Positions 2,665 through 57,200 of a stretch of DNA of 64,000 nt are shown here, piece after piece. The stretch lies in the NCBI GenBank assembly GCA_000146465.1, contig CP001943.1, one strand, 5' to 3'. A program made the position numbers and the translations under genes. Every line of letters starts with the position of its first letter. The first letter of the stretch is position 1. The notes under the pieces are model-generated. The model worked only from the letters and a program-made list of their open reading frames with translations, was not told the DNA's origin and made no database searches.

Positions 2665-4113
2665 TTAGAGCCTGGAGATGTATTCCTTTATATCCGAAAC
2701 CCAAGCGTCTCTTTCCTTTTCACAGGTGGTGTATAACTCCACTCCCTCTCCAGATCTTTCAAGACAGAAGCCGACTTGGCCAATGGGCAAAACATTACAG
2801 TTACTAAGAAGAAAGATCTTGTAGACTCTGCTCTTCTCATAACATATAAGAGCCTTTCCAACAAACTTAAAAAGGTATGCCTTCCATCCATCCTTGTCCA
2901 TCAAGAGATACGAAGATCTGAGCAGATGGGTACTGGAAATGTCTGAGAGAATGAAAGGCTGTAGCTGCTTATCGGTCATCTCCGAGTTTAGCGCGATTTC
3001 TATTGCTCTATCTCTTGCTCTTCTATCTTGTGGAGACATTGCGTTTGCTAGTGTTGCACATCGGATACCGGGGAAAAGTGTAGAAATATCCTTTATGGTC
3101 TTGCATATTATCCATTTTATGTCCGACTCAACTGTGATGTAGTACTTGGTTGTTTCGGCTGAACCTTCGTAACATAGTACAGTGTTAGAGATCCTGATTT
3201 GAGGATAGATTGTTAGTTTGCGGCCAGGAGCATAAAGATTTGAAGCCATTTGGGAGTTCCGAGTTTCTGACCAGCTGTGAGAAGCCCCCTTTAGATTACC
3301 TTCGGGTTTTTCGATCGTATTCTCTGGCTTGGACATGGACTTTACATACATCACATCGATAGGAGCAAAGGTTGGAGACTTCCCTGTTCTAGTATACAAA
3401 AAGCTGGGTCCTTGATACGAGGTTTTGCTCGACAAGCTAAGAGAACTTGCGTTTGATAAGGGATTACTAAATACAGATTTGGAGACAGAGAGGTCTTCTT
3501 CTTGGGCTTCCTTTTTGCCAAAAGGACTTGGCGAAGTTCGGTTTCTTCTATTTCCAAAGCTGCCGGAATTGGATGGAGCTTCTCTATTGAAAATAGAGCT
3601 GCTCGCTATTGATCTTACATAGCCCACTTTGGATCCTCGATTGATGGAATCCTCAACGCTTCCCTTATTCATACCATACGAGCTGAAGTCTATAGACGAT
3701 TTTTTGTAAAGATCCATTCCCACCATCGATCCCTTGGATATGTCTTTATGGGCCGGGCTCCTATTCATAGCTCCAGAAGAGTTTACTTTCCATGGAATCA
3801 CTCCTCCAATAAATCCATCCCTCATCTTTGTACTATTTACATCACCAGAATTGTTTTTTGGAATGCCATCTGCAGCTCCATTCTCATTTGAAAAGTCCTT
3901 GCTCTTGCCAAAGTAGTTTGCAGGAGATTCTAGCTTAACATTTCTGTTGAATACAAATCCACTTCCAACACAAGCCCTTGCCTTAAACTCCTCATTGATC
4001 CTTCTTAGCTTCTCATCCATCGATCCCATCGACAACCCTCTTGCATCCCTAAACTTTCCTTCCGGTTCTTCTGCAGCAGGAGACAGGTATGAGTTCAAAG
4101 AGTCTTTTCCCAT
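2665..4113 (-). CDS. Ser/Asn-rich protein with a C-terminal PH-like domain
   Basis: 482-aa ORF. The C-terminal about 100 aa (…GKALICYEKSRVYKIFLL…LERSGEGVELYTTCEKERDAWVSDIKEYISRL) has a PH-domain pattern. Upstream ATATTTAC...CCC motif. Confidence 0.45.
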   Translation of the reverse strand: MGKDSLNSYLSPAAEEPEGKFRDARGLSMGSMDEKLRRINEEFKARACVGSGFVFNRNVKLESPANYFGKSKDFSNENGAADGIPKNNSGDVNSTKMRDGFIGGVIPWKVNSSGAMNRSPAHKDISKGSMVGMDLYKKSSIDFSSYGMNKGSVEDSINRGSKVGYVRSIASSSIFNREAPSNSGSFGNRRNRTSPSPFGKKEAQEEDLSVSKSVFSNPLSNASSLSLSSKTSYQGPSFLYTRTGKSPTFAPIDVMYVKSMSKPENTIEKPEGNLKGASHSWSETRNSQMASNLYAPGRKLTIYPQIRISNTVLCYEGSAETTKYYITVESDIKWIICKTIKDISTLFPGIRCATLANAMSPQDRRARDRAIEIALNSEMTDKQLQPFILSDISSTHLLRSSYLLMDKDGWKAYLFKFVGKALICYEKSRVYKIFLLSNCNVLPIGQVGFCLERSGEGVELYTTCEKERDAWVSDIKEYISRL

Positions 4114-4198: not shown

Positions 4199-6397
4199 TT
4201 AATATTCTTTCGCTGTTGTTAACAGTCTACAGATATCCTCAACAGGGTCTACAAATATCTTTCTCCTATACACTTCGTGGCAAAGCTCTTCAAAGAGCTC
4301 TCTTGTATCGTCGTCCACAACCATGTTCAGGACAGAAGTTCTGAGATAATCGATTGCCTTCTCTTCGTCGATCCCAAGAAGATAGAGGTATTTATGTTTC
4401 CTAACCAGAAACTTTGAGAGATGGCGTATCTCTTTGTTTGTCTTCTTTTCAAGCCTAAACACCCACATGTCATTTACGCGCCGGTCTACCTTTTCGGAGA
4501 TATTCCCTCCAAACAAGTAAAACCATCCATCCATCTCTACAAACTGGTGTGCGGACCTTGGCGCCGGTTTGATATCCACTCCGGCTTCTGTTCTTGACTT
4601 CACCACCACTTCAGTCCATTTCTTCTTAATCAGAGAAAAGGTATATACATCTATGTTTTCAAATCTTCCTTCCTTCTCTTTTCCATGGCAGAAAAGAACA
4701 ACAATCTCATTCAAGTACAGAAGGCCCCTCTGGACAACTCTTCCCTCTCCACTGATTGGGAATGGCACACTTTGGAAAACAGTGTCTGTGTCCAGTCTGT
4801 AAAAGACCATTTCTCTCATCGAGCTTTTGTTCTTCTGCCCTCCTATGACTACAAGGCTATTGTTGTAGATGCTACCCTCGATATAGTCAGGGGGAATAAA
4901 CACCATACTATGCTCCAGTCTTGACTTCAGAGAGGGAGTGCTTGAAGGTTGCATTGTATCCGACCTTATTACCATCCACCTGCTCCTAAACAAACTCGAC
5001 GACGATGTTGAAGGTTCATGGCGGGAGTTGGATTCATCTAGCATATTTTCCTGGGAGATCCCTGTTCCAAATGATGGAGAAATCTCAGCCATACCGGGAG
5101 ATCTCTTCTCTTTTCCGCCGAATTGGCCGCAAGTCCTGTACCTTCCATCTGTCTCTGAGATGGGCTTTCCAACTTCATTTGTTCTTCCACACTTTCCCAA
5201 GACCTCCATCCCATAGCCCAGGGATCTTTCGTCAAGTGAAAACATGTAAAGTCCAGAGTATGTGTCTTCCTTCTCTGTAGATCTTCCTCCGAACACATAT
5301 AATTTATCTCCCACAACAACCATCTGATGATCATATATGTTTCCCGGTCCTCCCTCTTCGTCCGAGTTAATCACCCTCCAGTTTCCATCGAAGACCCATA
5401 TGTCTGATTTCCCTGAAAAGACCTTGCGAGAGGATAAGCAGATATATTTCCCCATCAGATAAAGTTTCGACCCGTATGAAACCATTCGGTGGCAACTTCT
5501 TTTCCCTGGTGATACTGTATTCATCTTAATCTCACTCCATTCTCCGCCTCTGTATCTCCAGAAGTCCTCTAGTTCTTCCACTCCGTTCCATCCCCCGTAA
5601 AGATACAAACTCCCATCCATTTCAACCATTTGATGTCCTCCTCTTTCGCAAGGCCATACCTCGGCTCTTGGTATCTCTGTCCACACCAATGAATAGGGAG
5701 AACTATCTATGAATCCTTGGAAGACACACGGATCTAACCTATCCAGTACTTCTTCTGTATCCTCGTACTTATGGCTTTCCAGCAGGTGCCTTATGTGCTT
5801 TACAATTTCGTCTTCTATTTTATCGGAGCTTCTTTTCTCGAGAATCTCATAAACATCTCTAAATCCACAGTCTCTCAGGAATTTCAGGCAGTTTCTCATG
5901 GATTTCCCAAAAATAACCATTTCATTGTATCTTGCAAATTTCTCGACATCGGCTATTCCTCTCAGCTCGACAAACCATAAAGAGTAGCTGAAGTTGACTC
6001 CCCATGCAGCAAGAGGCTCAATCTTCACATACTGGGCAATGTAATATGTCTCATCCTTTACAAGGAGATTAAAGGTCTCCATTTCAGAATCGTTTTTTAG
6101 GCCTCCGCACAAGACCTCTTTGTACTCGACGCCATCTCCGGAAACGCTTATTCTCATCTTTTTAACATTCGATACATGCATCTTGTTGTACTTTCCAAAT
6201 GTAATGGTCACCACAAGGCTTGGAGGGATCTTTAAGATGATATATTGGAGATGATCGTTAGTTGATGTCGACCATCTTGAGTTTGGATCCATGGGGTCAT
6301 TCTTTTTGATATTGCTTGGCATGTATACAGAGGCATATGTTGAATAGCTGTGTATCTCATAGGGAATCACGGTGTAAGACCTTCTATCATTCAACAT
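4199..6397 (-). CDS. MKLN1: Muskelin-like protein: discoidin domain, LisH/CTLH and Kelch repeats (CTLH/GID E3 complex component)
   Basis: N-terminus matches the muskelin discoidin region (…NSRWSTSTNDHLQYIILKIPPSLVVTITFGKYNKMHV…). A LisH/CTLH-like stretch follows, then GGHQMVEMDGSLYLYGGWNG and multiple Kelch blades (KLYVFGG, FYLFGG). Upstream CAAAATGTT...CCCC motif. Confidence 0.8.
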   Translation of the reverse strand: MLNDRRSYTVIPYEIHSYSTYASVYMPSNIKKNDPMDPNSRWSTSTNDHLQYIILKIPPSLVVTITFGKYNKMHVSNVKKMRISVSGDGVEYKEVLCGGLKNDSEMETFNLLVKDETYYIAQYVKIEPLAAWGVNFSYSLWFVELRGIADVEKFARYNEMVIFGKSMRNCLKFLRDCGFRDVYEILEKRSSDKIEDEIVKHIRHLLESHKYEDTEEVLDRLDPCVFQGFIDSSPYSLVWTEIPRAEVWPCERGGHQMVEMDGSLYLYGGWNGVEELEDFWRYRGGEWSEIKMNTVSPGKRSCHRMVSYGSKLYLMGKYICLSSRKVFSGKSDIWVFDGNWRVINSDEEGGPGNIYDHQMVVVGDKLYVFGGRSTEKEDTYSGLYMFSLDERSLGYGMEVLGKCGRTNEVGKPISETDGRYRTCGQFGGKEKRSPGMAEISPSFGTGISQENMLDESNSRHEPSTSSSSLFRSRWMVIRSDTMQPSSTPSLKSRLEHSMVFIPPDYIEGSIYNNSLVVIGGQKNKSSMREMVFYRLDTDTVFQSVPFPISGEGRVVQRGLLYLNEIVVLFCHGKEKEGRFENIDVYTFSLIKKKWTEVVVKSRTEAGVDIKPAPRSAHQFVEMDGWFYLFGGNISEKVDRRVNDMWVFRLEKKTNKEIRHLSKFLVRKHKYLYLLGIDEEKAIDYLRTSVLNMVVDDDTRELFEELCHEVYRRKIFVDPVEDICRLLTTAKEY

Positions 6398-19968: not shown

Positions 19969-21297
19969 TTAAACAGCAATAGAAGACACCTCTCCAGTCT
20001 TCGTCTTTACCTTGGCAATAATCTCAAAGAGCTCATTCCTATTCATTACCACATATCCCCCGAGTCTTTCTCTCCTGTGGAAGAGCTCAGAGGAGATTGG
20101 AGGGTCGTCTGTTGTCACGATAAATCTATCCTCGAGATATCCCTGAAAAATAATCATCTGCCTGAAAGAGGGACTGTACCTTCTTCTTATGTACATGTCG
20201 AAATAGTGCTCGAAAAGGTGTACCAGAACGCCTATTGCCATTCCCTTCAGAGTCTCGGAAATGTTGATCCTGAAGAGGAGGATATTTCCAAGTTTCCGGA
20301 TGTTGGCAAGGCTGTCTCTGTATATCCAGATAAGTTCGTGGTGAATCTTAATACTTTCTTTCATTCCCAGAACCTCTCTACTTGACAGACACAGAAAAGC
20401 GTCTACTCTAGCGCCTTTTAGCAGATGATGGCATATCAGAAAGAAGTTTTCTATGGGGGATACCTCGATGCCATATCCAATCTTTTTTACAAAGCATTTC
20501 CTTTTTCGGAAGTGTGACTCTATCAATGCTTTTGTGCTGTATCCAAGGTTCCCATACAGTTCATATGAGGCCTCTCTGGAAATCCCTTTTCTTGCAAGGT
20601 ACTCACAGATTCTTTGGGCCTCAGCGCTTTTGTTCTTCTTGTAGTATATCTTGTTGCTGACAACAAATGGAATATCATTCTGAAGTGCTGAAAACAGGGA
20701 CGTAAAGTTCAGAAAGGAAATACAAGGTCTTTCGACGTAATACAGCCCATCGGTGTCTGTCAAAACACCGGCCCTTTGGATCTCAAACACGAGATCTGCA
20801 TGTAGCTCTCGACAACCTGCACATATGCTGTCTGAGAAGTTGCTTTCATTCTCTAGATCATCGACCGGCGTGAGGTCCTTTGTAAATATTCTGTGGAACC
20901 CAAAGCACACGATCATGGCCCATAGAACATCGGTAGTGACGTAGTTCATAGCCTTTGCTAGGGAGTATGCCAGCATGCATGAATGAATCCAGTTGGGCTT
21001 GCAGGTGCATACAAACCAGGAGCCTTGGAGCGAAGAGTTTTCTTGGCCACAAAGAGAAAGGAAATTCTTACATTCTCTGGGATCCAGGTCTATGAACACA
21101 TTTAAATCTTGGTCGGAGTGGTGCTCTACCTTTTCAGGCTGAAAATCCATTTCAAATCTGATAAGTTCTTTGTGGAGGATTTCTGTAATAATCTTAGCTG
21201 CACATACACTCGAAGGAATGTCTGGGATGAATATCCTTACCGACCTGTATGACTTGAACTTGTTGATGATGCCAATAGGATTCCCTATATCAAGCAT
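19969..21297 (-). CDS. CDC45: CDC45-like replication initiation protein
   Basis: N-terminal VRIFIPDIPSSVCAAKIITEIL matches the CDC45 DHH-like [22 protein letters not shown]. Internal …DVLWAMIVCFGF… matches the LWWAIVGLT region. Start set at ATG 21297 (AATAAAAAATAT…GGGCAG upstream) rather than the track's 21534. Confidence 0.65.
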   Translation of the reverse strand: MLDIGNPIGIINKFKSYRSVRIFIPDIPSSVCAAKIITEILHKELIRFEMDFQPEKVEHHSDQDLNVFIDLDPRECKNFLSLCGQENSSLQGSWFVCTCKPNWIHSCMLAYSLAKAMNYVTTDVLWAMIVCFGFHRIFTKDLTPVDDLENESNFSDSICAGCRELHADLVFEIQRAGVLTDTDGLYYVERPCISFLNFTSLFSALQNDIPFVVSNKIYYKKNKSAEAQRICEYLARKGISREASYELYGNLGYSTKALIESHFRKRKCFVKKIGYGIEVSPIENFFLICHHLLKGARVDAFLCLSSREVLGMKESIKIHHELIWIYRDSLANIRKLGNILLFRINISETLKGMAIGVLVHLFEHYFDMYIRRRYSPSFRQMIIFQGYLEDRFIVTTDDPPISSELFHRRERLGGYVVMNRNELFEIIAKVKTKTGEVSSIAV

Positions 21298-21491
21298 CTG
21301 CCCTGAATTGTGGATATTTTTTATTGAATGACTGAATAGGATTGTAAAGCCATAAAGGCTGTTCAAAGGTGTGTGTGGGAGAGCATCAGGGGTTTTCCAC
21401 GGATTAGCAACCCTTCTGAATGAATAGATACTTCTGCCGGGAGATTTTGCTTCTTGAAGAGATAACAACAGAGCTCTTGGGATCCAAGGAA

Positions 21492-21767
21492 ATGGATGAG
21501 GAGACAACCCACAAGGCCAAGCTGCTGCTAACAATAAAGGACAAGCTCAATGAGAAGATGATGGAGATGGAGGAGTACTATATGAAGAGAATAGAGTTCT
21601 ACAGGGAAAATGATGGGACAAGGGCAAAGGAATTGGAGAAACAGACAGAAGAATGCAACGAGAAGTATCTAGGGCTTCTGATACGAGCAAAGGAGCTCGG
21701 ACATCAGATAGAAAGACTTGAGATAAAGGGCCTTCGAAATAAATCTTGTGCCGGAAATGAGTTGTGA
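21492..21767 (+). CDS. Small coiled-coil protein (hypothetical)
   Basis: 91-aa charged heptad-rich ORF. It fills what would otherwise be a 690-bp gap between CDC45 and the next gene. Confidence 0.3.
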   Translation: MDEETTHKAKLLLTIKDKLNEKMMEMEEYYMKRIEFYRENDGTRAKELEKQTEECNEKYLGLLIRAKELGHQIERLEIKGLRNKSCAGNEL

Positions 21768-21984: not shown

Positions 21985-23151
21985 ATGGCAGGCGAGAGGG
22001 CCGAATACGGCGGGATTGCCGGTGGACAAGAATTAATTTATCATTTCCAAGAAGACAGCGATGATCTTGGGGTTGAGAAGGAGTATGAGGAGAACGAGCC
22101 CAACTCTCTTAGGCTCCGAAATTTTGTAGAGGACGAGCTGTATCAGTCTGACGGACAAATGCAGTATAGAGGGGAGGACGAAATGAGGCTTCGGTATGGG
22201 CGCAAGAAGAAGGAGAAGAGAAAGAAGAAGAAGAATGATGAAAACAAAAGGCCATCGAATAGGAAGATAGTGAATCTTCCTGCGTCTCCTCCTTATGTAC
22301 GGTTTGTAGACGGAGAGGAAAGACTATGCTTCAAGTATGTAACGAAGGTCAGCGAGTCGGCACGTGATGCGATGCCCAAGACAGATCTGGAGGATAATGA
22401 GTTCTGTGTAAGATTTGATCTTGACAGCGTGGACATCAGCAAATTGAACGAAAAGTTCAAAGCAGACAACTGTGTGTATCCCAGGGCAAATCTCCCCTAT
22501 GAGATGTATACTGGAAACAGATGGGGATTTGAGACGGAATGCAACCGACTGGCATGGCAGTTTGTTTCGTTGAATCCTGTTCTTCTGTATGGAAAGAAGG
22601 GACTTATCCAGAGAGCCGTCGACTCTTACAGAACAATCAACAAGCAGAGCAGAAATAAGAGGATTGTCAAGGAAGATCGGTTTCCTAGCGACATTGAGAA
22701 GAGGAAGCATGTTTCTGGAGCACCCTCGACGATCACGATTCAATGGACCAACAGAGGGATTTTGAAAAAATGTAAAATCCAAGTTAACATCGAAAACATA
22801 AACTATGGGAAGATCGACGATGAATTCAAGTCGAGGTTTTCTGTATTTATGGACGATTTTGATGACAAGTCGTTTGGGAAGAGCAAGTGGGAAAGCCACA
22901 ACGTAGATAACGAGCTTGCAGTAAAGATAGCTTTTCTCAATGTTGAGAACACGTCGTTTTGGAATGCCATCAAGGCGCTTGATAAGACAACTGTGCTCAA
23001 GAAGGCAATTGAAGCATATAAACAAAAGAGAGATGAGTATGCAAGCTCCGATGATGACACCGAGATGTCTGATGTTATTGCAAGCGCGCTTGGGAGCAGT
23101 CTGGGAAACTCAAAGAGCTGTAATGTTGAGAATTTTTATTTTGATAATTAG
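21985..23151 (+). CDS. Hypothetical protein with an acidic N-terminus, a KR-rich patch and a globular C-terminal domain
   Basis: 388-aa ORF. A GGG-rich, A/T-rich stretch lies upstream. No family recognised by eye. Confidence 0.4.
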   Translation: MAGERAEYGGIAGGQELIYHFQEDSDDLGVEKEYEENEPNSLRLRNFVEDELYQSDGQMQYRGEDEMRLRYGRKKKEKRKKKKNDENKRPSNRKIVNLPASPPYVRFVDGEERLCFKYVTKVSESARDAMPKTDLEDNEFCVRFDLDSVDISKLNEKFKADNCVYPRANLPYEMYTGNRWGFETECNRLAWQFVSLNPVLLYGKKGLIQRAVDSYRTINKQSRNKRIVKEDRFPSDIEKRKHVSGAPSTITIQWTNRGILKKCKIQVNIENINYGKIDDEFKSRFSVFMDDFDDKSFGKSKWESHNVDNELAVKIAFLNVENTSFWNAIKALDKTTVLKKAIEAYKQKRDEYASSDDDTEMSDVIASALGSSLGNSKSCNVENFYFDN

Positions 23152-28520: not shown

Positions 28521-29074
28521 TTATTTTCGAGTCTCCTTGGACTTCTTGTTAAACTTCTCGGTATAGAACTTCAGCTCGCTTCCCTGCAGAACATGTCCCA
28601 GAGCTGCTCCTGCCTGCCCAGGTCTTGAGGTGATGATTCCATATAGATGTCCTTTTTCAAAATTCTCATGCAACTCAGGATCAGTGCTGCTTCCTATCGT
28701 CTCGATATCCTCTTTGAATGGTTCTGCCTCAATCTTAACAACAGAGCTCTTCGTTAGAGTATTGGTACGAACAAGATCGTTGGAGCTGGGATGGTACACA
28801 ACCTGCAGAAGCTTGGATGCTCTAGTCTTCCCAGTGCTGGGGAATCGAAAGTACCCAACATCCAGCCTCAAAGCCTTATATTTCTTGTTTCCACCTCTCA
28901 CTCTAACAGGAATCACCCTCCTTTCCCCTATCTTTGTTGCACTCGGCTGAGATCCTGCCCTGTTGTTGCGCTTCTTGCGGCTGATTACAGCCTTTGCTCC
29001 CGTCTTCCTACGCTTGTGGTCTCCTCGATGGTTTATTCCTAAAATTAATCTTCCTTCGGAGATCACTTACCCAT
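28521..29074 (-). CDS. RPS8: 40S ribosomal protein S8e, intron-containing. Exon 1 is 29071..29074 (ATGG) and exon 2 is 28521..29038.
   Basis: The spliced product starts MGINHRGDHKRRKTGAK…VRVRGGNKKYKALRLD…, which is eS8. In the unspliced frame a TAA sits just upstream of GINH. The ATG is preceded by CAGAAAAAATTTGCCCTGAA. Confidence 0.85.
29039..29070 (-). other. Spliceosomal intron (32 nt) in RPS8, after ATG-G
   Basis: Minus-sense sequence GTAAGTGATCTCCGAAGGAAGATTAATTTTAG. It has a canonical GTAAGT donor and a TTAATTTTAG branch/acceptor block. The phase gives M-G-I-N. Confidence 0.75.
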
Positions 29075-29075
29075 T

Positions 29076-29333
29076 TCAGGGCAAATTTTTTCTGCTCTCT
29101 TTATTGGAGTCTGCCTCGCTTTCATTCGGCTCCTCAGGGTTCTGAGATGTGCTGGGCACAAGTACTTCCATAGTCTTCTTTCCAAGTTCTGCCATCTCAT
29201 TTCCAGTTGCTTCCATCGCCTCCTTGATGGTTTCCATGTCAAGCTTCAATATCTTGTCTCTACGCAGTCCCATGATAAAGGCAGTAAGAGACGCTAAGAA
29301 CACGGTTGTTATAAAAGCCATCTTCAGCGTCAT
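29076..29333 (-). CDS. Small single-TM membrane protein (hypothetical)
   Basis: MTLKMAFITTVFLASLTAFIMGL TM helix followed by a charged tail. Upstream TATATTTTTTTTGATG motif. Confidence 0.35.
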   Translation of the reverse strand: MTLKMAFITTVFLASLTAFIMGLRRDKILKLDMETIKEAMEATGNEMAELGKKTMEVLVPSTSQNPEEPNESEADSNKESRKNLP

Positions 29334-29911
29334 CAAAAAAAATATACCTTCCAAAGATAAATACTTCCTATCCAATCATTTTTCTCTGTTTCTTACACCA
29401 GAGGTCTCTGAAACAGACTCATCTGACTTCAAGAACAAAGATTTCTTTTATGGCAAGGCTCGGTGGATTCAGAAAGTAGAAGGAATATCAGATGTTATTG
29501 TATGTTGGGCACCGAAGATCTTTGCATGCTACGCTTGTGAGTATTGGTTCTATACCATCTGCTGCAGCTTTTTTAGTAATTCTGACCAAAGAATATCAAA
29601 GGGAGGATTCCATTGTTTCTACTGCCGTGGAGTTCATTACAAAGACCTTCCCGATCCTTTTCCAGGAGGATTCTTGGGGCAGTCTACAGAAGGAAGTTCC
29701 AAAACAAGGAATAGTTCTTTACCAGGCTGAGGATGACCGAGCAGCAATCCATAAAGCACTCTAGGGAAATGGATGAAGGAAGATCCATCCAAGTCGTGGA
29801 AAGGAGTAGAGCCATGTCCTACGAGATGACAAAAACCCAGGGGACAAAGGCTAAGAGGCATTCGGTAATTAATCAAAGATAAAATATAAAAATTGCATAG
29901 AATAAAGTGGT

Positions 29912-30285: not shown

Positions 30286-30618
30286 TTACTGGAAGGACAG
30301 AGTATTTGTAATTGAATACAGGTTGCACACAAGCCCTTTCTCTTCTGTGCTTTTGTTAGGAACATACTTCTTCTTAACCTCCTCAAGAGCTGCCTTAAGG
30401 ATCCTTGGCTTAACCTCCTTGGGAAGGTCCTTCTTCGAGAACTTAGTCTTTGTGAAGTTGAAGAAGAATGCATGTTCATACACTGCCAGCATGGCATCAT
30501 CAACATACTCTAGGGTGTCGATGTTCTTGGCCTTGTACCTGAGATATTCTCTTTTAATCCTTTCGTAGTCGCAGACAAGGTGCTTTGTGGAGAGCTCCTG
30601 GATGTAGTTCCTCTTCAT
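30286..30618 (-). CDS. Small basic hypothetical protein (110 aa)
   Basis: Compact K/E-rich ORF tightly packed between RPL35A and MAD1. No family assigned. Confidence 0.4.
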   Translation of the reverse strand: MKRNYIQELSTKHLVCDYERIKREYLRYKAKNIDTLEYVDDAMLAVYEHAFFFNFTKTKFSKKDLPKEVKPRILKAALEEVKKKYVPNKSTEEKGLVCNLYSITNTLSFQ

Positions 30619-30657
30619 TTAATGTTGGGCTGGCGTTATGGCCACTGAATTTGTTAC

Positions 30658-31272
30658 ATGATGGAAACCCCTAGAATGGAGGAGCTGTATAGGAAATTTT
30701 CAGAGACTCTAAGAGAAAACACATCGCTAAGACATCAGATTGTCGATCTCGAATCTGCCTTGAGCTCGAAGGAGCAGGAGCTATTGATGGCCAAAGAATC
30801 TTCAGGCTTAGGTCAATACTTGAGGAGGATAGAGTCTTTGGAGCGAGAAAATAAGAGGTTGAAAGACATGGTAGAGAGGGCAGGGCAGGACAACTGTGAG
30901 GGTGAGAATATAAACCCAAACGCGATCATGAGTGAAGAGAAAACAGAGAATGGAACCCATAGAAGTGAGACTAAAGATCCTAGTGGAGAGCTGCGCCAAT
31001 ACCTTAAGACAATAAGAGAATATGTCACAGGCCTTACAGGGTACAAAATGGAATTCCGGGATGGGGAAATCATCTTCCATTCCCTCTATGCCTTTGACAG
31101 CGAGGATGTTTTTATCTTCCGATACAAGTCTGGAAACATGGAGCTCGTTAACAACGACTTTGCCGCTTCATGGGCCACAGAGGTACAAAACTACCTGATT
31201 GCAGGAAAGTCCATTCCTGCATTCCTTGCAGCGGTCACCCTAGAACTCTTCAACAAGAAGACATTTGGATAG
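30658..31272 (+). CDS. MAD1: Spindle assembly checkpoint protein MAD1, drastically shortened (coiled coil plus C-terminal domain only)
   Basis: C-terminus YVTGLTGYKMEFRDGEIIFHSLYAFDSEDVFIFRYKSG…KSIPAFLAAVTLELFNKKTF parallels the human MAD1 C-terminal domain (…[34 protein letters not shown]…DSIPAFLSSLTLELFSRQTVA). A coiled coil lies upstream. Confidence 0.7.
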   Translation: MMETPRMEELYRKFSETLRENTSLRHQIVDLESALSSKEQELLMAKESSGLGQYLRRIESLERENKRLKDMVERAGQDNCEGENINPNAIMSEEKTENGTHRSETKDPSGELRQYLKTIREYVTGLTGYKMEFRDGEIIFHSLYAFDSEDVFIFRYKSGNMELVNNDFAASWATEVQNYLIAGKSIPAFLAAVTLELFNKKTFG

Positions 31273-37909: not shown

Positions 37910-38590
37910 ATGAGTTTTTCCAAGATCAAGCCGAAGTCTTACGAGGGAAAAATGGAAGAGTGGTTGTCTGCAATCAGCATGAAGGTTACTGACCTGAACA
38001 GTCTGGTTCTCGACTACCTGGTCCATGAGGGACTAGGGGATATTGCAGCAGAGTTTGCAAGAGATGTTGGATTGCCTTTTACTGCATCTTCATTTCTGAG
38101 CCATAGAACACGGATAAGAGATGCAATTGAAGAGGGAGATATCAAGAAAGCCATATCGAGGATAAACGATCTGAACACGGAGATAATTGATGGGAATATT
38201 GAGCTGTACTATTTCCTTATGGAACAGAAGGCATGCGAACAAGCACAAGCGATAAGAAGCGAAGGAGAAAGCACAGAGGAGCAGAAGGTGTTTATTCTCC
38301 TTGAAGAAGTTCTTGAGTTTATACGTTCTGAGCTGTCGCCGATTGTTGAGGAAAACCCAGCCTTGGGGCCGCACTTTGAGGACCTCCTTGAGTTTGTTGT
38401 GTTCAACTCTCGGAAAGAGGCTGTGGTGGAGAGGAGGAGGAGGTTGGCAGAGTATATCAACAGGAATATACTGGAGAAGTACGAAGTAACGGAAAACGAG
38501 CTAAAGAAAGTTCTTGACGGAATTGTAAAGGGCGAAAGATTGCTGACGGAGAAGTACAAGTTCCCCACATTCAACGAGTCATTTATATGA
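37910..38590 (+). CDS. GID8: Gid8/TWA1-like LisH-CTLH-CRA protein (CTLH/GID E3 ligase core)
   Basis: LisH (LNSLVLDYLVHEGLGDIAAEFARDVGL), then CTLH (…RTRIRDAIEEGDIKKAISRINDLNTEIIDGNIELYYFLMEQK…), then a CRA-like C-terminus. Confidence 0.7.
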   Translation: MSFSKIKPKSYEGKMEEWLSAISMKVTDLNSLVLDYLVHEGLGDIAAEFARDVGLPFTASSFLSHRTRIRDAIEEGDIKKAISRINDLNTEIIDGNIELYYFLMEQKACEQAQAIRSEGESTEEQKVFILLEEVLEFIRSELSPIVEENPALGPHFEDLLEFVVFNSRKEAVVERRRRLAEYINRNILEKYEVTENELKKVLDGIVKGERLLTEKYKFPTFNESFI

Positions 38591-43361: not shown

Positions 43362-44840
43362 ATGGATAGAATCGAAAGATTTCTGGGGAGAAGGCCAGTG
43401 AAAGGCCGACGCAAAGTCCAGTCCCAAGGCAAGGAGTTCTTGATAACAAAAGAGGATGTGAAGCTCATAAGGAGCTACAAGAAGAACATCTGCATGGATC
43501 CAGATGTCGATCTGTACAGGCCGTTGAACTTAAGTTTCAGCAGAAAGACGATGAACGAAGGAATGGAAACAAGGAAGAAAGTGGTGGTACCGAGAGCCGG
43601 AGGAAGGCCAAAGAAGAAAGAAAGAAGCATCCGAAAAGAAGTTAAGAAAAGGGATAAGAACGAGATTGTGGACATTTGGGAGGAAGAGGGTCTTGAGGAG
43701 CTGAATAGTTATGAACAGGACATGGTTGTAAAAGTGGGGGATGCATACACAGGGGCTGTGGAGGCACTAAGATATGGAAGAGAAGATCTTGAAGGCAGCC
43801 TAAGAAGGATATACTTGAGGCTCTACGAGCCACGAGATGGAAAGAATTACAGGCTAAGAGATCTTATCAAGGAACTGCCTAAGACAGAGACCCTAAGGCC
43901 GTTTCCAGAGGAGATTGGATTGTCGTTTAAGTTTTCGAAGGCAATCCGTGTTGGAATCAGCCAAGATTTCAAGAAATTTGGAGTGGGAGAAGGAAGGAAG
44001 CTTGGGATTTACGAGTTTAAAAACTTTGTAAAGCTGAGACATATCCTCTTTGATTCGGAGATACGGAAGATAATGTTTGCAAGGAATGGGTCTATATGTA
44101 CGTTGCTAGCAGACAACACCATCTGTGTTGTGGACGATATTTATGGAGGAGATGCGGAGAGTTCCAAGGAATCTTTTATTTCCAAGGAATTTCCTGCGTG
44201 GAGCAGAAAGGAGGCAGAAGAGGGAGCAGAAAGGAATGCATTTGTGTGCACGGTGATAAATCCCGAGGGAAAGATAAATGATATAGAAGCCCATGAAGAT
44301 GGTAAGCATATTATTGCAGTTTGTGGAAAGAAGATTATGGTCTACAATCTCAAGGAACGGATAGGGCGGGAAGTTCTAAGGGTCCGGGGAGCCACGCCTT
44401 TGAAGGCCAAGTTCCATAGATCTTTGAGCACAATGATTGTTTCCACAACAAATTCGTTAATCATCTACGATCTTGTGTCCAAGGAAATAGTAAGGGAAGC
44501 CAAGGAGTTTTCGTTTGTCCTTGACTTCTTTAGTGTTGAGGAAAGTAAGGTGGCTGTGGTAAACAACACGAACAAAATAATTCTGTACGATTGGTTGAAA
44601 AACAATGTGCAAAGAACCATGCTTCAAGAGGATGTGGGGATGGAGGTGGTGCAGCATGGAAGACTCAATCTGATGTGTGTTGCATATCCCACGGAGATGG
44701 TTGTTTTCTACAACGACGTAACAAACGACCTGGTGGTTCCTGTAAAAAGGATTCCGGGAAGGTATAGAGATATTTCATTCCATCCGCATCTTCCCTGGCT
44801 GTATGGAGTCGGAGGAAATAGACTGGATGTGTTTACGTGA
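43362..44840 (+). CDS. WD40 protein with a basic N-terminus, possibly BOP1/Erb1-like (ribosome biogenesis)
   Basis: K/R-rich N-terminal region and C-terminal WD blades ending …HPHLPWLYGVGGNRLDVFT, similar to the Erb1 C-terminus. Assignment is tentative. The ATG is preceded by GTACCCTTTCCAAG. Confidence 0.45.
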   Translation: MDRIERFLGRRPVKGRRKVQSQGKEFLITKEDVKLIRSYKKNICMDPDVDLYRPLNLSFSRKTMNEGMETRKKVVVPRAGGRPKKKERSIRKEVKKRDKNEIVDIWEEEGLEELNSYEQDMVVKVGDAYTGAVEALRYGREDLEGSLRRIYLRLYEPRDGKNYRLRDLIKELPKTETLRPFPEEIGLSFKFSKAIRVGISQDFKKFGVGEGRKLGIYEFKNFVKLRHILFDSEIRKIMFARNGSICTLLADNTICVVDDIYGGDAESSKESFISKEFPAWSRKEAEEGAERNAFVCTVINPEGKINDIEAHEDGKHIIAVCGKKIMVYNLKERIGREVLRVRGATPLKAKFHRSLSTMIVSTTNSLIIYDLVSKEIVREAKEFSFVLDFFSVEESKVAVVNNTNKIILYDWLKNNVQRTMLQEDVGMEVVQHGRLNLMCVAYPTEMVVFYNDVTNDLVVPVKRIPGRYRDISFHPHLPWLYGVGGNRLDVFT

Positions 44841-49696: not shown

Positions 49697-49769
49697 ATCT
49701 TATTAAATAATTCTCTCAACACTTGTAACATTTGTGTTTCTGTTAATTGGCCCAAAAAAATTGCTGGGG

Positions 49770-52280
49770 ATGGAAGTGAAATTATGCGAAGATGCTTGGA
49801 AAGTTCTAAGTGCAATAAAGCAGACAATTGTTTCGGAAAGAATGAAAGATACGCCAGAGAACGTTACGGAGGCAGCGATTGAGACGTTTCTGGAGATGAG
49901 CCGAAGAAATGATCATTCGAAAGTGGAAGAGCTTCTTCAGATAATCCTGGCACATAAGAACTACATCACCGAGAAAAGTAGCACAGAGCTTGTGAGAAGA
50001 ATTCTTCTCTCCTTTAAGGAGAAGAAGGTTTATCTCCAAGGACTCCGGGTAATCAAGCATTTTGTGAAAAGCGGGAGATATCACATGTCGCACTTCAAGA
50101 TTCTTGTCGAAGACTGTTTTGGCCGGAAGTCACTAAAAACAAGGTCTGTGGAACTTGCAAAGAGATATCTGGAACTTGAGGAGTTTAGAAAGGAACTTCT
50201 AGGGTATATATCGAAGCTCGAAGGAACCGACTTGATAAGACACATCAACTGTTTCTTCGACTCTATTGCAGATGGAATTGATGTTGTAGAGAAACTTGAC
50301 TCATTTGTGAATCCGGATGTTTTTGAGGGGATGGAGACCGGCGAGGCAAGGGCACTGTACTCTGAATGCTGTGATATGCTCTACAAATATACGTTGATGG
50401 AGATGGAGGTTGGAATTCCGGATGAAAAGGTTTTTGAATACATAGTGAAGAAGCTTCAGATCCTGTTTGAAATTCCTTTTCCCAGGGGAGGAAAGCTCTT
50501 GGAAACTCTTTCATTACTTGCAGAAAAGGACTTGGTTGTTTCTTTAAGGAGCAAGCAGCATTTGATGAGATGGGATAAGAATCTGAAGAGAGAGGTTGTG
50601 AAAGAGCTCTGTGAGTCGAATTTGAAGAATGACAAAATATACGAGTTTATAAGATCTGTAAGGCACGTCCTTGTTCCCGAGTTCATGGATCTAATAAGAC
50701 ACATGGCAAGGAACTTTGTGGAAGGAGATGATAAATATCGATTTGCCCTTGGGGCAGTAGCAGGAATTATAGGAATCGAGGATCTATTTCTGGTACTAGA
50801 AGACATGGAAATAGAGATTAGGACATGGGCACCAATTATCCGATGTTCTTCAAATGGAGACATATCGTTTTTCATAAAGATTCTCCGGGATGTGGAGGAA
50901 AGAAAAGGTGTGGAATCTATCGACAGAACGATTCTCTTGAACTGTATTCCTGCATTCTGCAACTATGCAACTGATCGTACGGGTTCAATTGAAGGTCTCC
51001 TACAAATCATGAAAGCCAACCTAGGGAATTCAAACGTTTTTAATTCGATATGCACAGGACTAAGGAAGTTGATGCATTCCCACGAGAACAACATCAAGAA
51101 CAACTTGATTCTTCGAAACCCGATTCCTCCTGGGGAGTCGGAGAGAATCCTCCACTCAATCAGGAAATCCGAGATTGCTTTGGACATTCTTTCTGTAGGA
51201 ATTGGGAAGTGCTCTGATGAGCTGGATCAGACATTGTTCAAGCTACTGGAAACCGATGATTTTGGACTATCGAGCAGGATATTCCAGTATATCCTACTCT
51301 ACCCTCAGATTGAGTCTGTTACAGTCGGAAAGTGGAATCTATCGGGGATTTCGGATGTAATGAAGGTTGCAAGGTACTTTGTTCCAAAGATGAACAGCGA
51401 TTTCGAGATTTATAGCAAGCTCATGGAGTTCTGTCTTTCTGAGGACGGGGGAGCACAGAAAAGAGCATATCAGCTTCTGTATCACATGAAGAAGCATCAA
51501 AAGATTGATCTGTGCATCTGCGACACTTTATTTTCCCACGAAACCGATGAGAAGACAAAGGACTGCTCCCAGAAATGGAGGATTGCTCTTATTTATTCTG
51601 TTTATACAGTCGGATGCAAATGCTTTTCCGAGCGGAAGAAAGAATATCTCAACAGGATGCTTCCAGTGCTTGTGCTAGGTCTGAAGACAGGAAATGCTAA
51701 GGCCCGAAAGGTTTGTCAGGAAAATTTGGATGAACTTGTATCTGGGTTTTCATCTTCCGAATTTGATTTCTATTGTAGGCTAATGGTTGCAGGAACAGCA
51801 TCGGAAAATGTAGTTCTCAGATGCGGAATACTGGAAGCCTCTGTTGCACTAATAGAGAGCCACAGAGAAAGACTTTCCCAAGAATTCATCCAGTCGATGT
51901 ACGATGGCTGCCTCTCGACAAGTAGACTAGGAAGGGAAACTGTTCCCCATGTTCTCAAATTCTTAAATATCCTTGTTAGCACCTATGCAGTGAACCCTCA
52001 GGGATGTCTGGAAGTTTTAGAGCTATATGCAGACAAATTCAAAAGAAGATATGCAGAAGACGTCAAGTCGATTGTATCAAGACTGATTAGAAGAGATGTG
52101 GAGATCCCCAAGAGTCTCCGCCTTTTCTTGAAGGAAAGAAAAAGAAAAGGTCCTCGGGCAACCTTACAGATAACGAAGAAAAACAACGTGATGATCACAC
52201 AAGGAAAACAGAAACAGGAGAGCATTCCGTTTTCGGGCCACAGAAGAACCGTCAAGCGGAACAAGAGACACAAGAAATAA
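49770..52280 (+). CDS. Large HEAT/ARM-like helical protein with a KR-rich C-terminal tail (nucleolar ribosome-biogenesis type, e.g. RRP12-like; tentative)
   Basis: About 836-aa all-helical ORF ending KERKRKGPR…KRNKRHKK. The track start at 49734 is GTG. The first ATG at 49770 is preceded by CCCAAAAAAATTGCTGGGG. Confidence 0.4.
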   Translation: MEVKLCEDAWKVLSAIKQTIVSERMKDTPENVTEAAIETFLEMSRRNDHSKVEELLQIILAHKNYITEKSSTELVRRILLSFKEKKVYLQGLRVIKHFVKSGRYHMSHFKILVEDCFGRKSLKTRSVELAKRYLELEEFRKELLGYISKLEGTDLIRHINCFFDSIADGIDVVEKLDSFVNPDVFEGMETGEARALYSECCDMLYKYTLMEMEVGIPDEKVFEYIVKKLQILFEIPFPRGGKLLETLSLLAEKDLVVSLRSKQHLMRWDKNLKREVVKELCESNLKNDKIYEFIRSVRHVLVPEFMDLIRHMARNFVEGDDKYRFALGAVAGIIGIEDLFLVLEDMEIEIRTWAPIIRCSSNGDISFFIKILRDVEERKGVESIDRTILLNCIPAFCNYATDRTGSIEGLLQIMKANLGNSNVFNSICTGLRKLMHSHENNIKNNLILRNPIPPGESERILHSIRKSEIALDILSVGIGKCSDELDQTLFKLLETDDFGLSSRIFQYILLYPQIESVTVGKWNLSGISDVMKVARYFVPKMNSDFEIYSKLMEFCLSEDGGAQKRAYQLLYHMKKHQKIDLCICDTLFSHETDEKTKDCSQKWRIALIYSVYTVGCKCFSERKKEYLNRMLPVLVLGLKTGNAKARKVCQENLDELVSGFSSSEFDFYCRLMVAGTASENVVLRCGILEASVALIESHRERLSQEFIQSMYDGCLSTSRLGRETVPHVLKFLNILVSTYAVNPQGCLEVLELYADKFKRRYAEDVKSIVSRLIRRDVEIPKSLRLFLKERKRKGPRATLQITKKNNVMITQGKQKQESIPFSGHRRTVKRNKRHKK

Positions 52281-54164: not shown

Positions 54165-54223
54165 AGAAGGGACTTTCCTCCCAAAGGATTTATTACACTG
54201 GGGGCTTCTTGAAGCCCTTGGAC

Positions 54224-57200
54224 ATGAACCGGAACTATTTGAAGAACCTCTATCTCCAGCAACTCGAATCGGAACGGTATTCAGATGTATTCCGAGAAAG
54301 CCTACATAGCCTAGTGTCTGTGGAAATAATGAATACCGTTATACTCTTGGCTGTTAAGGATGATGACGAGGATGCACTCATCGATCTTCTGGAGTTGTTT
54401 CTGCAACATCTAGAGACCAACCCTATATTTTATGAGAAACTTGGGAAATCAAACCTTCACTTACTTCTGTTGGAACGTCCACTGAGGATGCAGAGCTACA
54501 CAAAACTAAAGTTGGTTTATGATAAGGTTAGGCCCAAGAGAACTCCACTAAGCTTTGAGCATACAGAGTTTCTCGCCAAAAACTTTTACAATTACTGTCT
54601 CTACAAGTACGCATACAATGATTATCAGTTCGACCTTGAGATGTCTGTGGAAGGATTTGGGCCGGTGGAGATGAATTTGTTCAAAGATCTCCTTAGGAAG
54701 ATATGCATTGAAAATAGAGAGAACGAGCATCTTGCTAATTATGTAAGAACTCTTCCCATGGACACAAATGTCTTTCTTGCTATAGTGGAGCCGGATTTCA
54801 AGGTAGATGCATCGAAGCTTGAGCCAGAGGATTTATTTGTTGTGTACCCAGCTCAGGTCCAAAGATGTAACCTGGGCTTGTTTACAAAGCCATTTCTTTG
54901 CAGTTTGAACTCTAAGGAGGGTCTTTGCAGAGTTTGTGGGAGAAGAGTTCTAGAATACCACTTTGAGGAGATCGACCACGAAGAATACCTGGAAAGTATA
55001 GCAGGAAATATCAAAGAGATATGTTTTGCTGTAAGTCATTGGGAAAAGGCCAGAACGCCTCGGGTGCTTATAACTGTTCTCAGGTCTCTGTTCAAAGGAT
55101 GCGAAGATCTCGAATGTTACAAATCCCTAAAGTACTTTCCGGTGAAAGAGGAGAGCGATATGGAGGATATAGTTGTAAAGTTCTTAAGATATGCAGCAAG
55201 CACATTGAACATTGAGAACATCCAGGTATCCCTCAGGATGCTTCCGTTTACAAGCCACACCCCAAAAGTAATATTTTCATACTTTGTTATTTTATTTGAA
55301 AGCTTACGAAAGTATCCGGAAAATGGGTTTTTGAGAAGCATAGTAAAGAATGTGGTGATGAGGAACAAGGACAAATTTATGAAGATAAGAGCAATGATAT
55401 TTGAATACTATATGAAGGGGGACGAAGAGTCGGTGTTTGACATTCCAAATAGAGAAAAAGAGGGAAGAGGCTTGAAGGATGGAAAGGACTTTAATACAAG
55501 CATAAGCGATAGACTTGAACGTAGACTTGCACCGTTGTCTGAATTCTTCAGCGAGGAGTGCGGATCTTTCGTTAAAAACAACATGTTCTACATATATCCT
55601 ATCATATACTCACTATGGCTTCCTCGTTGCACCCAGGATCTTGGATTTACTCAGGCAAATAACCACTTTCTAGTAATATCGCTTTGCCTCCAAGGGGAAG
55701 AAAGCAGAATAGATGAAATAGGATATGAAAAAGACGAACTGTATGGAATGGGGGTTGATGTAATTGTTCCCCTTTTGTGCAACGGATACTTCAAATATGA
55801 TATTCTGGAAAGGTTTTTTGGGGATACTCGGAAGTATATAAGCATCCACTTACCGAAGTTTTTATTTGCATTGAAGAAGGTGTATGTAGAAAGACCTTTT
55901 GAGTTTCGAGTATGTGTGTTTAAGGTTCTGAAGTGCATTATAGATGCAATTTCCAACAATGTGAAGATGTTGTTCAACTATCTATTTCCGTTTGTGGAGT
56001 TCTTTATGAGAAAACATGAAGACTCGTGTGGAATGGATTGCAAGATGATTTTCATTGAGTATTATTCATCATTTTTTGAGAACGATTGTTTTATCCGAAA
56101 CATGCCCAGGATATTTCCATATTTAGACGTTGAAAAGATAGTGAAGTGGAGCAATGCAAAGAATGAGGAAGACTACCTGGATATAGTCCTTGGGCTTTTG
56201 AACACCAAAGGGCACTTTTCACAGGAAATGGCCACCTCTAAAGCGGTGGAACTTCTTACAAGGGTCTTTGGAAGTATAGATAAAGATGGAGTGCTTGATG
56301 AAGAAAGCTTTGTGGAAAACATTCTTACCCGATTCTTTAAGAGCCCTACGTTTAGAATTAAGGTTGGGAGTATCTACAGGCGACTTAGAGAAGTGGAAAG
56401 TGATGCAGCATTCCTGATTGGATGTATATCACAGGAGTTTCTGGAACCAGAGATCCATCCCTCTGTCTGTGACGTTCCTATTATGGGGAATACTCCGGAA
56501 GCAATTGCTAGAGTGATGATTGAAAGGTATCTACTCGAGATAGATCCTGGAAAACAAGATCTTCATTTTTTCATAATACAGGAGACTTTAAAGTTTATTA
56601 GAGGGCCTTTAAGCGACAGTATAGAAGAAGTTGTTGATCAGTTTAGAAACACACAGTATCTCTATGAGCACGTGCCTACATATTCAACGGAGAAGTTGTA
56701 TGAAAAGACACATACATTTAAGAAGTTCCTCGAAAGGCTGTATCGGCACACCCTCTCAGAAGTTGAAAGGAGGAACAAAAAGGAATATTTTAATCTTCTT
56801 AGATATGGAGATCTGCTTGGGATTCCGTTTCTGGAGTTCCATTGCTTGTCCCTGTGCAGGCTACTTCTAGATTCGGGAGACAGCAGAGTTGCAGGGATTG
56901 CACAGAATATATCCCAGGACCTCGAGGGGGGAGTGGACAGAAAGATTGCAAGGTTTGTTCTGAAACTACACAGGTTCACAGAAGGGAAGTATGTTCCAGA
57001 TCTTGTGATACTCAGGATATCTATTTTTCTCAAGGACCATTATAACGCTATCCAGGTTTTAGAGAAGATGATAAGAAAAGAAAGGAGAAGGGATCTCTTT
57101 GATCTCCTCCAATACAACTACTATTGGATCAAGGACTATGACAAAGTACTAGGAATAAACTCGGTATTTGGGAGACCAACACTGATCAACCTTTTTTTTG

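Follow-up and report, generated by a model that had tools for sequence, protein, structure and literature searches.

What a Mad1 protein of less than a third of the normal length can still do is the question raised by a 64,000-nucleotide stretch of DNA (the window) from the microsporidian parasite Encephalitozoon intestinalis ATCC 50506. The window carries on its plus strand, at 30658..31272, an open reading frame (ORF) of 204 aa, which an earlier note on the sequence had read as a minimal Mad1, either an extreme reduction of the spindle checkpoint scaffold or a paralogue with a different role. The ORF is present as that note gave it, and sequence comparisons identify its product (mini-Mad1) with very high confidence as a Mad1 that has lost both the Mad2-interaction motif (MIM) and the Bub1-binding RLK motif. 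Seen as a whole, the evidence tips modestly towards a reduced Mad1 orthologue which, with both motifs lost, would persist as a dimeric RWD adaptor with a role independent of Mad2.

The gene itself is already known, being annotated and included in a curated Mad1 set, and the joint loss of the MIM and Mad2 has been published. Searches of the accessible literature turned up no paper that explicitly describes the short Mad1 of microsporidia, and the accessible part of van Hooff et al. (2017) makes no mention of the shortening, the missing RLK, or how strongly the head is constrained. What is added here is the anatomy of the protein, namely the clean removal of the MIM and RLK while flanking helices and a head under tight constraint are kept. 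In Microsporidia only the C-terminal head part of Mad1 is left, which makes mini-Mad1 a natural minimal form of the protein.

Identity and orthology of the short Mad1

The assignment of the C-terminal ~90 aa to the Mad1 C-terminal domain (CTD), made in the earlier note, is borne out by profile, sequence, and structure comparisons, which mark the last ~95 residues unambiguously as a Mad1 RWD domain. The Pfam family PF05557 (MAD) matches with an E-value of 7.9e-18 and 64.6 bits (cutoff 30), through profile positions 506-661 of 661 only. In a phmmer search against the PDB, the human Mad1 CTD (4dzo/7b1f) was matched by ORF residues 118-202 (E 3e-8), and these were the sole solved structures matched by sequence. 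The same domain was the sole significant match when an AlphaFold2 (AF2) model was compared with the PDB by Foldseek (E 1.9e-6, probability 1.00), with a root-mean-square deviation of 3.0 A over 95 columns and 30% identity. Furthermore, hhalign aligned a 20-sequence microsporidian profile with the C-terminal parts of 39 full-length Mad1s over 191 columns (probability 99.9, E 1.4e-35).

An exhaustive profile search returned 684 relatives, the top 13 of which (E<1e-30) are all 111-237 aa long. These short forms are followed by full-length Mad1s of 600-1000 aa, which are matched at their C-terminal ends and carry the MIM and RLK. The identical sequence is listed as EINT001283_Mad1 in the curated Mad1 orthologue set of van Hooff et al. 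(2017), which also holds a 180-aa form from Vavraia culicis and a 193-aa form from Edhazardia aedis. Other named short forms come from E. romaleae, E. hellem, E. cuniculi, two Ordospora species, Astathelohania contejeani, and Dictyocoela muelleri, and judged from these matches the short form (111-237 aa) is widespread across Microsporidia. Since the homology search found one mini-Mad1 protein per named species, the gene occupies the same syntenic slot in four genomes, and the more distant matches are full-length Mad1s, mini-Mad1 appears to be a single-copy Mad1 orthologue, which speaks against the suggested paralogue.

The protein is also genuinely short. On the upstream side a divergent gene is only 57 bp away from the Mad1 ORF, on the downstream side a convergent one 51 bp, and genes this close leave no space for missed exons; the small size is therefore not the product of a truncated gene model. 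Together with the restriction of the Pfam match to the end of the profile, this upholds the observation that mini-Mad1 is under a third of normal length and lacks most of the N-terminal coiled coil. The gene order S8e, PHD, L35Ae, 109-aa ORF, MAD, Suf, TrxR, DUF5089, and EMP24 is shared with the syntenic loci of E. cuniculi, E. hellem, E. romaleae, and O. colligata.

One correction concerns the start codon. Alignments indicate that translation almost certainly begins at the third ATG, at 30676, 18 nt 3′ of the ORF start at 30658, and that 198 aa is a better length than 204 aa. The shorter model is preferred because the start ME(E/D)L is common to all mini-Mad1 orthologues, because GenBank annotates 198 aa, and because the upstream ATGs at 30658 and 30661 are missing from E. 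cuniculi, E. hellem, and Ordospora in an upstream alignment of five species. The coding sequence, 198 codons plus stop, accordingly runs from 30676 to 31272 on the plus strand, and its product matches the E. intestinalis "putative MAD domain-containing protein" of the annotation at 100% identity; in UniRef that protein bears the name spindle assembly checkpoint component MAD1.

The five-species alignment also bears on the 57-bp divergent intergenic region (30619..30675), which is presumed to hold the promoter and 5′ untranslated region. The element TGAATTTGT, ~20-30 nt upstream, and a C-run directly abutting the ATG are kept there (window 30646-30675), and four Encephalitozoon species have both at their Mad1 genes. 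Start signals of AAATTT-like and CCC-like type have been reported for Encephalitozoon. The layout of TGAATTTGT and C-run resembles these signals and supports 30676 as the start. As an observation on another gene of the window, the ATG of S8e is preceded by a similar AAATTT...CCC layout, AAAAATTTGCCCTGAAATG (window 29075-29090).

Architecture of mini-Mad1

Measured against canonical Mad1 (~700 aa), mini-Mad1 is about a quarter of the size and has lost ~500 residues of N-terminal coiled coil. The long N-terminal coiled coil of the family (~480-530 aa) is not present, and in the AF2 model ~70 helical residues precede a linker. This model, from a monomer job, has a mean predicted local distance difference test score (pLDDT) of 70 and a predicted template modelling score (pTM) of 0.36. 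In the 198-aa numbering, which is used below, it predicts two helices (residues 2-42 and 45-69), then disorder (73-101) and a third helix (102-121), and after these four beta-strands with helices at the C-terminus. The "short coiled coil" of the earlier note can thus be kept as a description of a coiled-coil remnant, which takes the more precise form of two helices followed by a 30-residue disordered linker.

Helix 1 (aa 2-42; 30679..30801, plus strand) is leucine-zipper-like and modelled with a pLDDT of ~90. It gives weak bZIP/HALZ-type Pfam matches, residues E14, N15, and L18 are nearly invariant, and a microsporidia-specific signature, M[DE]ELYxK..E.LKEN..LK, is kept in it. Helix 2 (aa 45-69; 30808..30882, plus strand) corresponds to a segment that is variable or absent among other microsporidia. 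The linker (aa 70-101; 30883..30978, plus strand), with a pLDDT <50 for residues 73-101, is fast-evolving; its length among orthologues ranges from 0 to ~45 residues, and it is absent from the 130-aa form P0011. A short stem helix (aa 102-121; 30979..31038, plus strand) was placed by the AF2 model and aligns to human residues 628-637 and the sequence upstream of them, amounting to about half of the human CTD stem, with E105, I113, T118, G119, and L120 invariant. The RWD head (aa 122-198; 31039..31269, plus strand), made of the four beta-strands followed by the C-terminal helices, is the part that Foldseek superposes on 4dzo/7b1f. Because the helices are leucine-zipper-like with a near-invariant Asn15, and because the human Mad1 CTD is dimeric (PMC8391104), mini-Mad1 is probably a dimer as well, presumably a parallel homodimer.

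Loss of the Mad2-interaction motif

The published MIM pattern, [KR][ILV]{2}x{3,7}P, occurs at the expected place in 5 of 6 fungal Mad1s, and 38 of 41 full-length Mad1s carry the motif as K[VI][VL]H..xNP, 170-185 residues from the C-terminus. None of the 15 microsporidian Mad1s tested matches this pattern. The hhalign comparison shows where the motif went, with a 19-column gap in the microsporidian profile opposite the full-length consensus '...ydp ktKVlHl..NP...'. In E. intestinalis the deletion junction falls between aa 47 and 48 (ORF residues 53/54; 30814..30819, plus strand). Helix 1 maps to the coiled coil directly N-terminal of the MIM and helix 2 to the helix after it, where IESLERENKRLKDM is aligned to 'L..Lr.En..L'. 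MAFFT gave the same mapping, with an 8-residue gap at 'ILQLADNP', and most HMMER local alignments begin directly after the MIM, at profile positions 25-36. These alignments indicate that the MIM has been lost as a clean internal deletion, with both flanking helices kept. A MIM within residues ~60-110, where the earlier note would have placed one if anywhere, is therefore contradicted both by the absence of the pattern from all 15 sequences and by the position of the homologous site.

Other placements of the motif were considered and set aside. If helix 1 were instead the post-MIM helix, 'ENKRLKDM' in helix 2 would contain the RLK motif and the protein would begin directly behind the MIM; this mapping was rejected, as MAFFT, the HMMER start points, and hhalign (which gives the alternative 19%) all favour a pre-MIM helix 1, and no MIM is found under either mapping. 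When relaxed as in van Hooff et al. (2017), the MIM definitions mostly pick up the kept 'L[IV]xGKSIP' of the RWD domain, and this is no MIM. The remaining relaxed matches fall at isolated, non-homologous coiled-coil positions in single species.

Loss of the Bub1-binding motif

In the stem of the human Mad1 CTD, Arg617 of the RLK motif binds phospho-Thr461 of Bub1 (PMC8391104). The equivalent position can be set in other Mad1s by counting back from the kept 'GY' at the start of the first strand. An R-L-x sequence stands there in 34 of 38 full-length Mad1s (RLK in 24) and in 0 of 38 short forms, in which Pro, Gly, and Asp are common. The counterparts of human R617-L618-K619 in mini-Mad1 are D101-P102-S103 (30976..30984, plus strand), and in the hhalign comparison the RLK equivalent lies in a 4-column gap. 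The upper half of the CTD stem, RLK included, is therefore read from these alignments as lost, with the disordered linker in its place, and mini-Mad1 is left without the known docking site for Bub1 CD1.

The 'KRLK' within helix 2 is most likely not a Bub1-binding RLK, as it maps to the post-MIM helix. Its 'RLK' is replaced elsewhere in microsporidia by RLR, ELK, RLM, RLI, or CIR, or is absent, so it is not a kept motif. The RLK is also missing from the Mad1 of C. elegans and Xenopus (PMC8391104).

Selection on the stem and head

The loss of both known partner-binding motifs, together with a protein middle that is degenerate and varies in length, would be expected of a non-functional relic decaying after the loss of the checkpoint. 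The substitution pattern says otherwise. Within Encephalitozoon, the proportion of nonsynonymous differences (pN) is 0.009-0.043 for stem and RWD head (aa 102-198), 0.02-0.12 for helix 1, 0.16-0.24 for helix 2, and 0.30-0.44 for the linker, and the corresponding synonymous proportion (pS) for stem and head is 0.58-0.71. Synonymous sites between species are saturated (pS 0.5-0.9, with many infinite dS values), which makes dN/dS unreliable, and pN was therefore set side by side for the regions of the gene and for its neighbours. For the pair E. intestinalis and E. cuniculi, the Mad1 stem and head have a pN of 0.041, against 0.048 (EMP24) to 0.142 for the neighbours and 0.114 for L35Ae. By this measure the stem and head are at least as constrained as the best-conserved neighbour, and more tightly so than a ribosomal protein, L35Ae, two genes away.

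The conserved residues are concentrated in the head. Across 13 sequences 41 columns are invariant, 36 of them within aa 122-198. Thr196 (codon 31261..31263, plus strand) aligns with human Mad1 Thr716 and with the T of the full-length consensus 'LF.rqT'; T196-F197 is invariant, and 38 of 38 short forms carry T-[FLYM] at the C-terminus. In human Mad1, Mps1 phosphorylates chiefly Thr716, the phosphate of which binds Box1 of Cdc20 together with the beta2/beta3 region 652-661 (PMC9605988). The microsporidian match to human 652-661 is 'HSLYAFDSED', in which H-S-L-Y-A-F and D144 are invariant. Thr196 is therefore, by alignment to T716, a candidate Mps1 phosphosite for Cdc20 binding. These comparisons point to strong purifying selection on the stem, the head, and the C-terminal threonine, with a linker that evolves almost neutrally.

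A relic is scarcely credible in this light. The ORF is intact in every species in which it was found, distant microsporidian lineages included, and the selection data, with a stem and head pN at or below that of the most constrained neighbours and 41 invariant columns, refute decay. True decay in this genome also looks different, as in a nearby PHD-finger gene with two frameshifts and a stop.

Checkpoint partners in the genome

The absence of a Mad2 gene, which the earlier note had named as an outcome that would count against its reading, is what the literature reports. Meraldi et al. (2006; PMC1557759) found E. cuniculi to lack Mad2 and its Cdc20 to lack a Mad2-binding site. E. intestinalis does not appear in the files of van Hooff et al. 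(2017) for Mad2, p31comet, TRIP13, or HORMAD, and V. culicis and E. aedis are likewise not in the Mad2 file. In those files E. intestinalis does have Mad1, Bub3, Mps1, Cdc20, Cdh1, Knl1, and Zwint-1, as well as members of the Ndc80 and Mis12 complexes, Aurora, Plk, Survivin, and APC/C (anaphase-promoting complex/cyclosome) subunits. Of the checkpoint proteins, only Mps1 and Bub3 were named as kept in the earlier survey, which missed Mad1 (Meraldi et al., 2006; PMC1557759); mini-Mad1 corrects that statement for Encephalitozoon. Within the 64-kb window, Pfam searches found no HORMA, Bub1, Mps1, or other checkpoint gene besides Mad1.

The partners that persist are themselves reduced. E. intestinalis Cdc20 has 59 residues before its WD40 domain and a C-box, DRYTK, and its sequence contains no KEN box and no N-terminal MIM. 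A single match of the MIM expression in Cdc20, 'RVLHVALSP', lies inside the WD40 propeller and was discarded. The 434-aa EINT_MADBUB of Tromer et al. (2016) is annotated with TPR (17-105) and GLEBS (137-170) only, whereas human and yeast BUB proteins have 8-10 annotated features in the same file. It matches Pfam PF17014 (Mad3_BUB1_I_2) at 158 bits, and a motif scan of it found no KEN, ABBA-like, CD1-like, or kinase catalytic motifs. E. intestinalis is not in the MadBub file of van Hooff et al. (2017), though it is in that of Tromer et al. (2016), from the same laboratory. This disagreement means that published absences in microsporidia can be errors and need care.

Taken together, each motif lost from Mad1 has its ligand gone too, the MIM with Mad2 and the RLK with Bub1 CD1, and the docking set of Mps1, Knl1, Bub3, and the MadBub stub persists while every motif for building a mitotic checkpoint complex is gone. 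Where Mad2 has been lost and Mad1 remains, species never retain a canonical MIM (van Hooff et al., 2017). With no MIM and, per the literature, no Mad2, there can be no Mad2 presentation, so mini-Mad1 could not act in a Mad1:Mad2 template, nor is it a functioning scaffold for the checkpoint. Of the "extreme reduction of the checkpoint scaffold" proposed in the earlier note, the reduced Mad1 stands and the scaffold does not, there being no MIM and, in the two published surveys, no Mad2.

A minimal scaffold that still works, in which a cryptic MIM in the linker captures a highly divergent Mad2, is consequently very improbable. It could appeal to the two kept helices that flank the MIM in canonical Mad1, to the fallibility of published absences shown by the MadBub discrepancy, and to the non-canonical MIM that land plants use (van Hooff et al., 2017). 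However, no canonical MIM occurs in the 15 sequences, relaxed matches lie in the RWD domain or are scattered, and the MIM position itself is a gap. The linker, the only candidate region, is near-neutral and is dispensed with in P0011. Two independent surveys found no Mad2, the MIM of Cdc20 is also lost, and with a MadBub that lacks KEN and ABBA no mitotic checkpoint complex could form.

The retention of Bub3, Knl1, and a GLEBS-bearing MadBub stub, though every effector motif is gone, invites a further possibility. In this scenario mini-Mad1 would still join the Knl1-Bub3-MadBub stub at kinetochores, through a new interface, perhaps the TPR or the degenerate C-terminal region of MadBub in a C. 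elegans-like manner, and would have a structural or attachment role rather than a signalling one. The RLK is not universal, as C. elegans and Xenopus show (PMC8391104), and this is in its favour; the interface, however, is purely hypothetical. Docking of this kind is considered doubtful, and it overlaps with the RWD adaptor favoured here, from which it differs in the partner only.

A proposed role for the remaining head

How a dimeric RWD adaptor of this kind might act can be sketched more tentatively. With the stem now short, the zipper helices would join two RWD heads into a homodimer, and the head with Thr196 would remain a docking surface under the control of Mps1, which is kept in the genome. 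Cdc20 could dock there with its short basic N-terminus, or a different kinetochore protein could, and the outcome would be a Mad2-independent role in mitosis. This specific mechanism, a zipper-held RWD dimer with an Mps1-regulated docking surface, is possible but has the weaker claim of the two, the adaptor role being the broader one.

Several points weigh against both the adaptor role and this mechanism. The identification of helices 1 and 2 as the pre- and post-MIM helices is the best alignment rather than the sole one, hhalign leaving the alternative a probability of 19%. The AF2 model covers a monomer (mean pLDDT 70, pTM 0.36), and dimerisation is only probable. The invariant head residues could serve folding and dimerisation instead of ligand binding. 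Binding of the Cdc20 N-terminus by human Mad1 also needs the RLK region (PMC9605988), which is gone here, and the basic stretch before the C-box of E. intestinalis Cdc20 is only a candidate Box1. Finally, the absence of Mad2 rests on two published surveys, and the MadBub disagreement shows that such absences are fallible.

The loss of RLK and Bub1 CD1, both known determinants of kinetochore recruitment, also leaves room for a repurposed RWD dimer, kept for the sake of a lineage-specific partner, that works independently of Mps1 and away from kinetochores; the nuclear envelope, the spindle plaque, meiosis, sporogony, and trafficking are examples of where it might act. At nuclear pores and elsewhere, canonical Mad1 has roles that do not depend on Mad2, and the microsporidia-specific signature of helix 1 would suit such a partner. 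Nevertheless, mini-Mad1 lacks the N-terminal region by which the Mad1 of other organisms is directed to nuclear pores, and the parts kept are those that act at kinetochores elsewhere, where the terminal threonine is an Mps1 site. Mps1, Knl1, Bub3, and the MadBub stub are, moreover, co-retained. Repurposing is on balance unlikely, if far from negligible.

The protein also has a wider interest. In human and yeast Mad1 the C-terminal head does something beyond presenting Mad2, and this function is hard to isolate because the other functions of the protein are essential to the same pathway. As a speculation that is itself rather unlikely, mini-Mad1 may be a natural separation-of-function allele that retains an ancestral activity of the RWD head needing neither Mad2 nor Bub1 CD1. 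Candidate activities are an Mps1-controlled binding of Cdc20 that gives a Mad2-free anaphase delay, or a role in kinetochore attachment. Were this true, some mitotic surveillance would survive in organisms thought to lack a spindle checkpoint.

Neighbouring genes and other features of the window

The gene divergent from Mad1, at a distance of 57 bp, is a 110-aa ORF (30286-30618, minus strand) with no significant Pfam match. It is syntenic at 109-110 aa in all five genomes, with 71% identity to its E. cuniculi counterpart and a pN of 0.14, and is by these comparisons an uncharacterised conserved microsporidian protein. The broken PHD-finger gene mentioned above (29484-29855, plus strand) lies between S8e and L35Ae, 1 kb upstream of Mad1. 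It contains two frameshifts and an in-frame stop (KE*FF), with the N- and C-terminus in one frame and the Cys-rich PHD core in another. The gene is intact at 142 aa in E. cuniculi, E. hellem, E. romaleae, and Ordospora colligata, and the E. intestinalis ATCC 50506 copy is either a pseudogene or an assembly error.

The S8e gene (minus strand) has a 32-nt spliceosomal intron at 29039-29070, GTAAGT...TTTTAG, directly after 'ATGG', the removal of which restores M-G-I-N-H-R-G-D-H-K-R-R-K. In the ORF list the gene appears only as a GTG-start ORF, and the E. cuniculi gene model exceeds its coding sequence by 31 nt, consistent with an intron. Close by, a small ORF at 29136-29333 (minus strand) has 56% identity to a 67-aa predicted protein of E. 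hellem and is uncalled in the E. cuniculi and E. romaleae loci; it may be an under-annotated small gene.

Further along the window, 54209-59647 (plus strand) encodes an ATR/Mec1-like phosphatidylinositol 3-kinase-related kinase (PIKK) of ~1800 aa, with PI3_PI4_kinase, HEAT_ATR, and FATC domains. This kinase of the DNA-damage and replication checkpoint is kept where most of the spindle checkpoint is lost. A Muskelin at 4199-6397 (minus strand; Muskelin_N and Kelch repeats, E 2e-86) and a LisH/CTLH protein at 37910-38590 (plus strand) are components of the GID/CTLH E3 ligase, kept in one of the smallest eukaryotic genomes. Seven ORFs of 388-848 aa have no Pfam family at E<=1e-5 (43-1239, 2665-4113, 9482-10783, 19969-21534, 21985-23151, 43362-44840, and 49734-52280) and are candidates for fast-evolving or lineage-specific microsporidian proteins.

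Comparison with known systems

Mini-Mad1 resembles canonical Mad1 (human MAD1L1, 718 aa; yeast Mad1; structures 4DZO, 7B1F, and 1GO4) in its RWD head and lower stem, and also keeps the threonine equivalent to T716 and the coiled-coil segments that flank the MIM. Canonical Mad1 differs in having ~500 more N-terminal residues, the MIM, and an upper stem with RLK, as well as a Mad2 partner, which the literature reports as absent here. Precedents for a Mad1 without RLK are C. elegans MDF-1 and Xenopus Mad1, yet these are full length, have a MIM and Mad2, and serve a functional checkpoint. In C. elegans the receptor of Mad1 is the kinase domain of BUB-1 instead of CD1. The loss of the canonical MIM is shared with the Mad1 of other eukaryotes without Mad2 (van Hooff et al., 2017).

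Beyond the Mad1 family, Spc24/Spc25, Ctf19/Mcm21, and Csm1 belong to the same fold class, in which short peptides of partners at the kinetochore are bound by an RWD head on a coiled-coil stalk. Foldseek matches of the mini-Mad1 model to Ctf19-Mcm21 and Spc24/25 are not significant (E 0.4-1.1), and sequence and fold point to Mad1 specifically.

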